From Stylophora pistillata (lineage: Eukaryota), in the NCBI RefSeq assembly GCF_002571385.2, contig NW_019218526.1:20359-84358 (forward strand): a stretch of 64,000 bases of DNA, given 5' to 3'. Shown here piece after piece: positions 46,011 to 51,496 of this stretch. Numbering within the stretch: the first letter of the stretch is position 1; the number at the start of each line of letters is the position of its first letter. Below the pieces are notes generated by a model. That model was given only the letters and a program-made list of their open reading frames with translations. It ran no database searches and was not told the origin of the DNA. The position numbers were made by a program, and so were the translations under genes.

Positions 46011-49000
46011 GTTGGTGGTATTCTGCAGCCCATTGACAAAAGGCTTGTACACAAGATCGGAGAGCTTGTTGGCGAAGGTGTGAAAACTGTGGACGAGATG
46101 AAAAGACATCTTCGGCAATTTGTAAAGACTGAACTGTTCCCAGAGCAAACTCCACCATCATCTACAAATAGACGATATTATCCAACAGATGTGGATGTAA
46201 GGAACCACATGTACCAGGCCTCAGTGAAAAAACTGCTGTCCAAAACTGATCAGGAGAACCTTGAAAAGAAAATTAAAAGTTGGCATCAGGAGAAACCTCA
46301 AGATTCATTCTATTTTAGACCCTGTGCACTATCATTGTCATCAATCTATGCTGAAAGCAACAGTGATGACAAAGATGGAACTTGTATGCAAGATGATCTT
46401 CTATTTGCTCATCAAACAGCCTGGCAGAAAAATCTTATGGTCCGTTATGGAAATGAAATCACCCTTCTTGACGCAACATACAAGACAATGCGATATGAGC
46501 TCCCTCTATTTTTTCTAGTGGTGAAGACAAATGTAAATTACATAGTTGTTGGTTCTTTCATCATTCAAAGGGAAACCACAGCTTTAATACAGGAAGCACT
46601 AACAATCTTCCATGACTGGAATGCCAACTGGAAACCCAAATTCTTTATGACTGACTTTTGCCATGAGGAGATCCATGCCATTGAGAGCACATTCAAAGGT
46701 AACAATGACTTATTAATAAAGGTCTAATGTTTACAAAGTGAGAGAACCTACATTGAAATTGTAGCAAACTAAACTTAGTCCCTAGGGAGAATCGAATCAA
46801 AGTAAGAAAACTTTACAATTCTCTTTTTAATCAAAACCTTGCTTTACTTAACTTGAATTGTTTTCAGTAGAGTGTACTGATCAGTAAGACTTTAATTAGA
46901 AAGGGTGACAAACTACCAGGTTTCACTGGTGGTTCCAAAATTACCTAAATATGACATACATTTCATACTAATTAAAAATATATATATTACTGAATCAAAA
47001 ATATAAAAATGATGGTAGCACAGTGCTACATGACCAATATGAAAATTAGAAAAAGAGAAACAAGGAAAGCAGATACTAAACAGTATGACAAAAATGGTGC
47101 ATGAATTAAAATTATTACTTAAAATAGGTTGCTATAAAGTTGTGAAGAAGTTACAGACGTATGTTTGTGCAAGGCTTCATTAGATTAGGCCCTGCTCATT
47201 AAAAATGCTTGCAAGATGTTGAAAGAGTTAAAGTAACAACTATACAATCCTAATACCCTTGATCCATCCTTGGGATTCGAAAACAAGGGCATACATTTGA
47301 ACCTTAGTACTTAGGTCTTCAGTTAAAGAAGTAGCGGTAGATATTTCCACGTAGGCAAAACTACAAAGTTAAGCTTACAGTAGGCTGATACCATAGGGGT
47401 TACCTCCTACATAGTGCTTAATTATCTAATCTTTCAAATGACTAATGTACCAACTCTCTCAAATGTAAATGTACATGAATTTTCCCTTTTAATTTGGTTT
47501 AACAGATACAACTACATATATTTGTGACTTCCATCGTGAACAGTGCTGGGAAAGATGGCAACGAAAGTCTGAAAATCGGTTGACTGACAACAGAGAAGAG
47601 GTCCTATCATTGCTACCTAACATTGCAAAATCATCAACAGAAGAGTTGTTTGAAATAAATTTGTCTTCCCTCAAGGAGAGTGCACTTTGGCGGGCTAATC
47701 CCAAGCTCAGGAAGTGGTTTGAAAAAACTTGGCTCATAGAGTCTGAGGTAAGAAATGAAATATTGCCCACCGCACATAGTTTTTCACTTCTCTGTGATAC
47801 CCTGTGAGTATGAACAGAACAAAAACTTGCCTCTGGAGGCTTACCTCTTTTTTACCTGACATGCACAACCTTTTCTAACTTATTCATGTATAAGCAATCA
47901 TGAATTGATACTGTGAGCTGTTAACATGCATCAACACCAAGTCATTTAAAAGTTCAAGTTTCCTGTACTTTGTTTAACATTACAGCGATGGGTGTGGGCT
48001 TTCAGGCGAGACAGATTTATGTTAAATATCAACACCAACAATGGCATTGAGCGACAGAATGAGTCCTTGAAATACCAGTACCTGAAGGACCGAAATAACA
48101 ACAGCCTCAGTGGGATGATTACAACATTAATTGAGGAATTTTTACCAGACAAATACAGAAGGTACAAGTAGATACTAGAAGTGCAGTTAGCAAATTCAAA
48201 AAATTCCCATGCTCACTGTATGTATTAAGGTGGGTCAAACCTTTTCTCTGTACATTCCACCATGTATACTTTGATGGATCAATATTTCCACTCTTTATCA
48301 GTTGATGCTATTATTACTGGAACCAAATGAATGCACCATCCTTGCTTAAAAGTTACAATAATTTTCTCGGCAAAACAGGTTACTAGCAACATTATAGCCT
48401 ATTGAAAACACACCTCATTTTAGCTTTCTATTGTTAGAACTCAAAAACAAGCTCAGCTGTGACCCCTCTTTTTATTATTGATCTATCATCATTATGCTAC
48501 ATTACACCTCAAATTTTGAATTATTTAAGATAGCTTCCAAAATATATTTTTAAAGTTTTCAAGTTACATCTTAGCATACTGATTAAAATTTGATAATAAA
48601 AGCTTGTCTTTGAGTTATAACCAGTTAAAGCGACAGGTTACTCCATGTTGTTCACCTATTATGTCAAGAAAATGATCATAATTACTTTTGTTAAGTAAGG
48701 GTTGCATTTTAGTTTGGAAACAGTATTATAGCTGCATAAACTGATAAAGATGAGTACTATGGTACAATCAAAGTATGTGCTGGAGTGTGCTGGAAATAGG
48801 TCTCAGCCACTTAAATAATGTGACAAATCTGAAATATGTAAGTCTGATATCAATACATTAGAAACAGCACATTAAAAAGCTGTTAATTTTCCAGGTATGT
48901 GGAGCTCAATACAAAATGCAGTGAACAGTACAGGCGTTACAACTCAGATGTGCCAAAATACTTGCACAATAAACCCAGACCGTTTATTAACCATTGCAGA

Positions 49001-51496
49001 CAGAGAATAAGATCAGCTGTTGAAGTGGAACCTCACCACATTAAGGAAGTTTGCACTGACACAGAAGTTGGTCAATTCCAAGTGAGATCACTCTCAATAA
49101 ACACTTGGTACAATCTGTCTTTTGGTTCCAGGGATGTAATGCCACATTGCAGCTGTCCTGATTTTTGCCATACTGGCCTGCTATGCAAGCATTTTTTTGC
49201 AATTTTCAACTACTTCCCCACCTGGCAGTGGGATACATTACCAGAAAAATATCGCGAAAACCCTTATCTCTCACTAGACAAGGAGCATGTGTTTGCTGAT
49301 TTTACTAAATACAAAAGTAACAAAGAAAATGACAATGTTCTTGATGAAGAGATACCAGAAAAACAGCCAGATGACAAAGCAGTAGTCCCACAACAGAAAA
49401 TAAAAGGTATTGAAAGCCAAATCAGGCAAGAGGCAATAATATGTAGGGAGAAACTTAAAGGACTAACATCTCTGACATACAATATTGAAGATGAAAGTGT
49501 CCTCAAAGACCTAAACAGTTCTCTTGAAGTCTTACTCAATAAGTTCACAACTTTTCAAACTATTGATGAAAAGGAAAACTCATCACAAACATTGATTAAT
49601 CAACAAAGTAGCAAGAAACAACTCCAATCATCCTTTATAAATTACCTGCCATTACCTGTGCGCCCAAAGAAAAGAAGATTTCGGAACAGAGTTGGAGAAT
49701 TTGCATCTATGATGCAAAAACACTACAAAGTTCAAGTTCCTGTTAACAGCATGCAAGCCAAGAGGTCCAACTCAAAGAGTGTTCTTAAACGAAAGAAAGG
49801 TTCTAAACACCCCTCTTCACCAAAGAAACAGCGCACTGAAGAACAGAACCACCATGTCCAAAATGAAACTAAAACAAGCAATGATCCTTATGCTACTCTA
49901 AGGGAATACATTATCTCCAAAGAGAAAAAATCTCCTCTTGGTAACGATCACGAAAAGCAGGAAAGCATTCATGCTCCCCATGCAACTAACATACCAAAAA
50001 GATGCATTTCTCCTTCTTCAAAAATGCAAGGTGTGCAAAAACAATCTATCGAAGTGAAAGAGGAGCATTTCAGCAACAGTCAGCTATCAACATTTAGCAA
50101 CTGCCCATCATCGAAAGTCAGCAACAGTCTCCTATGGACAATCAGCAACAGTGAGACATCAACAGTTAGTGATTGTCACATAACAAAAGTCCTTGTGAGT
50201 CCATCAACAACAGTCAGCAGTGGTCAGTCCTCAACACTCAGCAAAAGCCAAACAACACTTGTCAGCAATGGCCAGTCATCAACAGTCAGCGAAAGTTTGT
50301 CACTGATGGTCAGCAAAGGTCAGTCATTAACAGTTGGCAACAGTTTGTCATCAACAGTCAGCAAAGGTCAGTCATCAACAGTCAGCAACAGTTTGCCATC
50401 AACAGTCAGCAACAGTTTGTCATCAACAGTCAGCAAAGGTCAGTTATCAACAGTCAGCAACAGTTTGTCATCAACAGTCAGCAAAGGTCAGTCATCAACA
50501 GTCAGCAAAAGTTTGTCATCAACAGTCAGAAATGGTCAGTCATCAACAGTGAGCAATAGTCAAACATCAAAAGTCACCAATGGTCAGTCATCAACAGCCA
50601 GCCACAGTTCATCATCTACAGTTAGCAAAGGTCAGTTTGGCAAATCTACTTTAGGAAATACCATAATTGTTGATGAAAATTCAGCAGATCCTGCATCGTG
50701 GGTAACAATAGCAAATTGTTATCCTGACGATCCAGATTACAAACTTAATCTCTACCTAGAAAGCAAGACAACAATTTTACAGAAGAACCATTGGCTCTTT
50801 GACTCTGAGATCCATGCAGGGCAAATGCTTCTCAAGAGACAATTTCCCTTCATAGATGGGCTGATTGATCCAGTAGTAAAGGGGTCTCTTGTTGTCCCTG
50901 CTGCATCAGAGTTCATTCAGATCATAAATACTGGGTCACACTGGGTATGTCTTAGTACAATTTCAACCACACCTACTTCTGGTACCGTCAAGATTTTTGA
51001 TAGTCTCTACAAAAATATGAATTCAACATCAATAGAGCATGCTTGTCGCATGTTGATGTATCCTGGAGACAAAGTCACTTTTGTCAATGAGAAAGTCCAG
51101 CGACAAGTTGGAGGTAGTGACTGTGGTCTGTTTTCCCTGGCTTTTGCAACTGATTTGTGTCATGGTATAGACCCAACAAATCAGAAGTATCATCAAGAAT
51201 CTTTGCGACAACACTACGTTGACTGCCTGGAAAATGGAGAAATGTCACCATTCCCCAAAACTGAAAAGAGAGTGCCCTGCCACTTGAGCAGCATCAAGTC
51301 CTCTGTTGCTATTTACTGTGTCTGTAGACTACCATACAATAGAGAAGAATATGTTCAGTGCAGTAATGACAAATGCAAAGAATGGTATCATCCCACCTGT
51401 GTTAAAATACCAACCTGGGCAATAAACAGCAACCGCAACTGGAGATGCCACAAATGCAAAGAGTATGCAAAAGTTAAGTCATTGTCAAGAAGCTGA
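46011..51496 (+). CDS. CaRF-like MULE/Mutator transposase with SWIM, Ser/Thr repeats, Ulp1-like (C48) protease and PHD finger; 5' exons missing
   Basis: Exons 46011-46698, 47506-47747, 47986-48161, 48895-51496 splice in frame (1236 codons). LLDATYKT, FMTD, CDFH, TNNGIE; SWIM CSCPDF...CKH; HWV/IFDSL/Q..GSDCGLF; C4HC3 PHD; AATAAA at 51605. Confidence 0.85.
50070..50640 (+). repeat. Coding 24-bp minisatellite (SSTVSKGQ / SSTVSNSL)
   Basis: TCATCAACAGTCAGCAAAGGTCAG and TCATCAACAGTCAGCAACAGTTTG units, about 20 copies. Confidence 0.9.

Follow-up and report, generated by a model that had tools for sequence, protein, structure and literature searches.

A predicted Mutator-like transposase of Stylophora pistillata with an N-terminal domain homologous to CaRF's DNA-binding domain and C-terminal C48 protease-like and PHD domains

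The stretch of DNA analysed here (the window; 64,000 nt, positions 20,359 to 84,358 of the forward strand of contig NW_019218526.1, Stylophora pistillata assembly GCF_002571385.2) contains at 46011-51496 a predicted gene for a Mutator-like element (MULE) transposase. The encoded protein combines a DNA-binding domain (DBD) of the ALS2CR8 type, also found in the transcription factor CaRF, with an RNase H-like DDE core, a SWIM finger, a Peptidase C48 domain and a PHD finger. A second copy on contig C51 of the same genome supplies further exons and the terminal inverted repeats (TIRs). The features are listed below (window positions, except for the last line).

45747-46010, + strand: 3' part of the intron lying 5' of the first window exon; the gene extends 5' on C51
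46011-46698, + strand: predicted exon 1 of the window; C-terminal helical part of the ALS2CR8/CaRF-type DBD (46026-46223), followed by the RNase H-like DDE core's N-terminal half, with D154 at 46470 and D215 at 46653
47506-47747, + strand: predicted exon 2 of the window; holds the CxxH motif (47523-47534) and a helical insertion, with substitutions seen in the window alone at 47560, 47577 and 47617
47986-48161, + strand: predicted exon 3 of the window; conserved W and catalytic E332 (48049-48051)
48895-51496, + strand: predicted last exon; SWIM finger (49148-49192), low-complexity linker, C48 protease, PHD finger and stop
50204-50636, + strand: 24-bp tandem repeat (18 copies, 73% matches) encoding an 8-residue Ser/Thr-rich linker
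50801-51280, + strand: Peptidase C48 (Ulp1/SENP-like) domain with H1051 (50939), D1071 (50999), Q1106 (51104) and C1112 (51122)
51317-51457, + strand: PHD finger, protein residues 1177-1223
51497-51848, + strand: 3' non-coding part of the element, meeting a palindromic high-copy repeat near 51785; on C51 the element continues to the right TIR
45747-46259, - strand: likely second exon of a spliced antisense RNA, seen in a single contig of RNA run X11; a pyrimidine tract precedes the acceptor at 46260-46261
C51:681899-682037, 682653-682804, 682914-683024 and 683142-683288: further predicted coding exons

All four window exons are bounded by AG acceptors and GT donors and join into 3708 nt, encoding 1235 residues followed by TGA, with no internal stop. 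The unbroken four-exon frame of the original prediction was thereby confirmed, its 1236 codons including the stop. The core motifs D154, D215, C236xxH239 and E332, together with the conserved Trp, are those of MULE/Mutator transposases, and the core is followed by a C-C-C-H SWIM motif (C454/C456/C466/H468). With the His-Asp-Cys triad and oxyanion Gln of the protease and the C-terminal PHD finger, every residue set that had been claimed was located in the frame. The HMMER comparison proposed as a check gave Pfam matches over the cut-off for ALS2CR8 (E 6e-15), MULE (3e-8), the ZSWIM1-3 RNaseH-like family (2e-12) and PHD (6e-6). The C48 score was 19.4 bits for the complete exon and 24.6 for the domain taken alone (cut-off 20.7), and SWIM was under its cut-off here (16.4 vs 19.6) and over it in relatives. 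Catalytic and zinc residues are kept across 24 aligned relatives. A Gp5_trimer_C match over the tandem-repeat linker was regarded as a low-complexity artefact. The observed/expected CpG ratio is mostly 0.1-0.4 across the gene vs about 0.8-1.2 in the flanks, which would fit a methylated region. Three exon 2 codons (nt 47560, 47577 and 47617) depart from conserved residues: L>Q where 14 of the 24 relatives have Leu, G>R where 21 have Gly and R>P where 20 have Arg. Because the C51 copy and all four sequencing runs examined have the conserved letters there, the window letters are taken to be assembly errors or those of a decaying minority copy.

The description of the element as intact holds for the frame and fails for completeness, since the window is without the 5' coding exons and both ends, and position 45746 is an assembly join. 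The C51 copy, found by searching the host's own genome, shows 100% protein identity over the first window exon and DNA identities to the window of 99.8% and 99.2%. Homology ends exactly at the window's Ns on both sides, contigs of three of the four runs read on from 45747 into intron letters of C51, and in one run the hAT-like element upstream carries on elsewhere than into 45747. As homology stops at the Ns and run contigs pass into C51 letters, the N at 45746 is a scaffold join and not a true adjacency. A search for 5' exons in bases 1-20000 of the window's own contig, apart from N runs, found none; the C51 copy made their recovery across 45746, together with the ends, possible. Positions 7-51, 59-88 and 90-140 of the ALS2CR8 profile (PF15299) are matched by three C51 exons (the latter two under the cut-off when taken alone) and positions 167-232 by the first window exon. 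C51 itself is without the window stretch 48733-50384, at a 1-N join there. Window and C51 combined give a stop-free model of 1418 aa in eight predicted exons.

The C51 copy is bounded by 69-bp TIRs that are 98.6% identical and lie outside the window (left, 681306-681374; right, 688975-689042), and a diverged C267 copy terminates at the very base where the C51 element does. The element is about 9.4 kb long, unrelated high-copy inserts included. Another inverted match (C51:677308/688526) was rejected as its TIR, being an unrelated high-copy palindromic repeat, and a 1.1-kb repeat at C51:678021-679096 is likewise unrelated to the element. The first window exon has 44 matches in the genome, 24 of them with stops, and thus belongs to a dispersed family of decayed copies; the transposase upstream of the C48 or C48-PHD part is kept in relatives on C229, C609, C444, C176 and C1080. 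With 139 genome matches, the C48-like domain is a common passenger in this genome. Compared with distant copies, dN/dS is 0.07-0.15 for the DBD and DDE core, 0.08-0.32 for C48 and 0.28 for PHD; the two add-on domains are under selection. A recurring 12-bp motif (CCATCCACCAAA-like) was found near the ends of the element and its relatives 10 times in 259 kb vs about 0.25 expected. Subterminal repeats are described for Muta1 (PMC5499845), and by analogy the motif is a candidate site for transposase binding. Three relatives differ in structure: a transposase at C298:240136-248897 within long nested inverted repeats (664 bp, 95%), foldback-like and with no clear end; an internally deleted copy at C494:100576-104826 that keeps DBD and C48-PHD, has lost the DDE core and shows the shared end motif on both sides; and one at C10:1242076-1243872 (- strand) with an 810-codon open frame, apparently intron-free over DBD, DDE and SWIM.

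The resemblance of the first exon to CaRF proved real and spans the whole ALS2CR8 domain once the 5' exons are added. The N-terminal 260 aa align with vertebrate CaRF at 27% identity (E 2e-23), and the two share a homologous domain of about 260 aa with the same four zinc ligands. In a tree restricted to DBDs covering at least 200 profile positions (12 CaRF rows excepted), with isoforms removed and 20 CaRF orthologues retained, CaRF orthologues ranging from corals to mammals group together in a single clade that has no transposase domain. Such orthologues are present in anthozoans, lancelets and vertebrates, and the host's own CaRF is a separate multi-exon gene (C27:883040-889559) that is 77-94% identical to a coral CaRF. 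The element falls outside the CaRF clade and is not its sister; judged from the sequences, it appears to be a cousin of CaRF and not its source. The suggestion that it represents the lineage from which CaRF was domesticated therefore stands in the broad sense only, the tree speaking against a sister relationship and a separate CaRF already existing in cnidarians, this host among them. Because the tree is unrooted, poorly resolved and unevenly sampled, the direction of descent can only be inferred, and descent of CaRF from a transposon is proposed.

We consider the following reading probable. Most of the transposase gene of a Mutator-like DNA transposon, roughly 9.4 kb long and with 69-bp TIRs, lies in the window; this gene would encode a single 1418-aa protein whose N-terminal domain is homologous to the CaRF DBD; and it was probably from this transposon lineage that CaRF arose, the transposase core having been lost. 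A wider proposal, for which the chances seem nearly even, is that CaRF, a neuronal factor long described without relatives, is a tamed WRKY-GCM1-type DBD of a Mutator lineage still present in corals, Hydra, molluscs, crustaceans, lancelets and fish. It would have been domesticated before the cnidarian-bilaterian split, perhaps before ctenophores, and the same domain would have been tamed again in frogs, decapods, tunicates and teleosts, a link that would be new to print. Stand-alone ALS2CR8 proteins outside the CaRF clade, candidates for further domestications, were noted in dart frogs (tandem domains), malacostracan crustaceans, a tunicate and teleosts (P0017/P0020, P0139/P0144/P0120, P0116/P0103/P0079, P0057/P0123 and P0037). 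The row nearest to the CaRF clade (support 88) is a stand-alone ALS2CR8 protein of the ctenophore Bolinopsis (P0127), possibly a very early CaRF orthologue.

The ALS2CR8-MULE-(SWIM)-C48-PHD layout recurs in the octocoral Paramuricea, in Hydra and in the fish Channa. Hydra has many paralogues, and its proteins P0013 and P0014 show the full ALS2CR8-MULE-C48-PHD layout; in Rhopilema and a lancelet, C48 is present and no PHD finger was detected. When the DBD of a relative was used in a profile-free HMMER search, 1310 cluster representatives were returned at E values up to 0.001. All 66 long representatives scanned carry ALS2CR8, and 26 of these also a MULE or ZSWIM RNase H domain. Only P0002 itself came back when its DBD was used in a word-indexed homologue search. 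The connection between CaRF and transposases can nonetheless be seen in public annotation, where such transposases bear the label 'calcium-responsive transcription factor-like' and an automatically generated cluster name combines ALS2CR8 and MULE. Among P0038, P0062, P0109 and P0110, two proteins have ALS2CR8 fused to NTF2; the others have it fused to C48 or PHD, with no DDE core detected.

Between 78 and 96% of the words of the window stretch are present in 20 sequencing runs from 8 studies, several of them labelled coral. Four runs were compared as contigs, two of poly(A) RNA and two probably of DNA. RNA contigs cover introns 2 and 3 with no splicing. A single contig of RNA run X11 joins window position 46259 to C51:688814 (minus strand), resting on one 28-letter loose end. 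The part skipped on the minus strand starts with GTAAGT (donor at C51:688813), ends with a pyrimidine tract and AG, and corresponds to an intron of about 6.6 kb. This joint was absent from the other three runs among the loose ends listed, and a DNA contig of run X8 crosses the junction site unbroken. A spliced antisense RNA from the right end of the element is the likely reading. Its longest open reading frame (ORF) has 126 aa, and because only short ORFs are present it was not read as a second gene.

For the PHD finger, the best solved matches were EBS, PHF2, BPTF and DIDO (E about 1e-7 to 1e-5), whose PHD fingers have methylated H3K4 as ligand. The aromatic residues Y1176, Y1183, Y1188 and W1199 are at the sites that make up the methyl-lysine cage in PHF2/BPTF-type readers, a putative cage here. 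Most PHD-bearing relatives have the cage Trp, and the Tyr sites vary. The best solved matches of the protease were weak and mixed (SENP8, E 0.02; Ulp1-like protease, E 0.12; SseL, E 0.15), and a single-sequence AlphaFold2 model of the C48-PHD part reached a predicted local distance difference test score of 35, with no usable fold. It is quite possible, if not our preferred view, that C48 is not a SUMO protease acting on silencing and instead removes NEDD8 or ubiquitin or cuts the transposase polyprotein itself. The mixed matches fit this, as do the self-processing proposed for protease-fused transposases in PMC1702500 and the interchange of OTU and Ulp1 domains on Ginger1 transposases noted in PMC2836005; against it, the best Pfam family is C48, over the cut-off on the isolated domain.

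The open frame with its residues, the TIRs, the family of decayed copies, the homology to CaRF and the selection on the add-on domains are established, and the mechanism outlined next is inferred. The zinc-binding ALS2CR8 domain would bind the repeated 12-bp motif in the element ends, and the DDE/CxxH core would move the element by cut-and-paste, like that of Muta1. H3K4-methylated chromatin may be read by the PHD finger, which would steer insertion or access to promoters, and the C48 domain may strip SUMO or another ubiquitin-like tag from the transposase or from nearby chromatin proteins. The element seems to be restrained in the RNA samples examined, in which the sense introns stay in and the right end probably gives rise to an antisense RNA; control through antisense RNA and intron retention is the most speculative of these steps.

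Several observations weigh against a CaRF-related, mobile Mutator transposon. The joining of the exons in transcripts was checked, and contigs of the two RNA runs contained no sense splice joint, so that splicing stays predicted; zero joints are not proof of absence, because contigs drop rare forms. Of the TIRs and 9-bp target-site duplication (TSD) that the original prediction expected, the TIRs were found and the TSD was not: none (6-11 bp, up to 1 mismatch from 8 bp) surrounds the C51 ends, which flank an assembly join. Nor was a TSD found at the C494 relative, whose true ends are unclear, and an inverted-repeat and TSD scan of 11 family neighbourhoods gave no convincing one. When an empty site was searched with both flanks, the left flank was unique and the right one matched only local paralogues on C51. 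The element ends and TIR occur once in the assembly, so that any recent transposition is hypothetical. Against the closest dead copies, dN/dS rises to 0.5-0.7 (0.6-0.7 at dS 0.06-0.09), and the enrichment of the 12-bp motif is post hoc, the motif having been chosen after inspection of the ends. The tree is unrooted and was computed in quick mode with 52 of 123 inner branches unresolved; its transposases were chosen for their similarity to a single cnidarian query, and 12 of the CaRF rows, from chordates, cover only profile positions 1 to about 180. The fold match of the DBD model to Aft2 was middling and tied with unrelated helical matches, and Foldseek and a Foldseek-seeded VIA comparison on this model found nothing.

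That the window piece is a misplaced contig of the C51 element (another haplotype or a collapsed repeat) and not a separate insertion is rather more probable than its opposite, given homology that ends at Ns on both sides, the complementarity of the two pieces around 48733-50384, the continuation of 45747 into C51 in three of four runs and the single occurrence of the ends. Seven differing sites between the pieces outside the tandem repeat count against this, as does a summed contig depth in run X8 of about 18 for the 5' half vs 30 for the 3' half, a weak hint of more than one copy from a quantity not taken here as a measure of copy number or expression level. The reverse direction of descent, in which the element captured its DBD from an older host CaRF gene, is unlikely. 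CaRF is very old, with orthologues in anthozoans, lancelets and vertebrates and a ctenophore protein nearest to it, the unrooted tree allows this direction, and capture of host sequences by MULEs is known (PMC6446971). Yet the ALS2CR8 domain occupies the normal N-terminal DBD slot of MULE transposases, with that family's C..C..HxxH insert pattern, its transposase-linked forms, spread over cnidarians, molluscs, crustaceans, echinoderms, lancelet and fish, show much greater diversity than CaRF, and the transposase link is ancestral for this domain family according to PMC1702500.

Slightly less likely still is a domesticated, fixed single-copy host gene that is no longer mobile. Ends that occur once without a TSD, the presence of its words in runs from 8 studies, the coverage of the locus by RNA contigs and a frame that stays open across the long linker all fit such a gene; the 98.6% identity of the TIRs, the recently diverged dead copies on C420 and C267, the lack of spliced sense RNA in the two runs and the many Hydra paralogues with this layout argue for the transposon.

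Kaonashi MULEs of Arabidopsis, reported by Hoen et al. in 2006 to carry an Ulp1-like protease, would share with the present element the state of Mutator carriers of such a protease and differ in being plant elements. The combination of MULE transposase, C48 protease and PHD finger in one frame holds as a predicted polypeptide and is already in print in animals: in Bao, Kapitonov & Jurka 2010 (PMC2836005), the Fig. 1e legend describes an alignment of Ulp1 and PHD domains of Ginger1 and Mutator transposases, and the paper cites Repbase reports of Ulp1-bearing Mutators of hydra and lancelet and lists Ginger1-9_HM with Ulp1 and PHD. Compared by description, those Hydra and Branchiostoma Mutators are, like the present element, animal DDE transposases with C-terminal Ulp1 and PHD in one frame and introns; CaRF is unmentioned in the passages on them (PMC2836005). 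Some Ciona and C. elegans MULE transposases have a C-terminal PHD finger (Babu et al. 2006, PMC1702500). Insert-containing WRKY-GCM1 MULEs are described in the same source as having an N-terminal zinc DBD with an insert between cysteines, then DDE, then SWIM, an arrangement that the present protein probably shares, and their DBDs as repeatedly recruited into transcription factors (Aft1(Rcs1)/Aft2, Rbf1 and FAR1/FHY3); the names CaRF and ALS2CR8 do not occur in its main text. Rehavkus, by its description in PMC6446971, likewise has PHD in the transposase and TIRs of 26-400 bp, and differs in its hosts (arthropods and annelids), 9-bp TSDs and a minisatellite before the 3' TIR, with no SWIM listed; a cnidarian Ghost subgroup is listed there as well.

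The protease-PHD fusion on animal transposons is thus known and by itself of little interest; the fresher point, and the part worth following, is the CaRF homology of the DNA-binding end. In passages of Pfenning et al. 2010 (PMC2877716), the CaRF DBD is called unrelated to known families and a Nematostella orthologue is reported, with no text match to 'transpos'. CaRF or ALS2CR8 is not named in the passages searched of PMC13359780, PMC10027918 and PMC11601247, one transposon review names ALS2CR8 only for a LINE1 insertion, and no paper linking CaRF/ALS2CR8 to transposases was found among the literature matches listed, subscription papers and Repbase lying outside this scope. Unlike the element, CaRF is single-copy and slow-evolving and has no DDE, SWIM, C48 or PHD. 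Fold, zinc ligands and origin now become testable for this BDNF regulator, which, if the reading is right, would be an ancient addition to the transposase-derived transcription factors of animals. The near-complete element also offers a direct test bed for the roles of transposon-borne C48 and PHD domains, so far guessed at in the literature, and a candidate antisense silencing route from its right end.

Elsewhere in the window, a long frame at 42439-45745 (+ strand) with one stop (44469-44471) has no Pfam match over the cut-off and adjoins the gene only via the assembly join. By its motifs, including an N-terminal zinc finger, it is presumably a hAT-like transposase region. Palindromic high-copy repeats lie at 14385-14661, 33790-34051 and 60169-60262, and a near-identical direct plus inverted duplication around single Ns at 11323-13111 is likely an assembly haplotype overlap.

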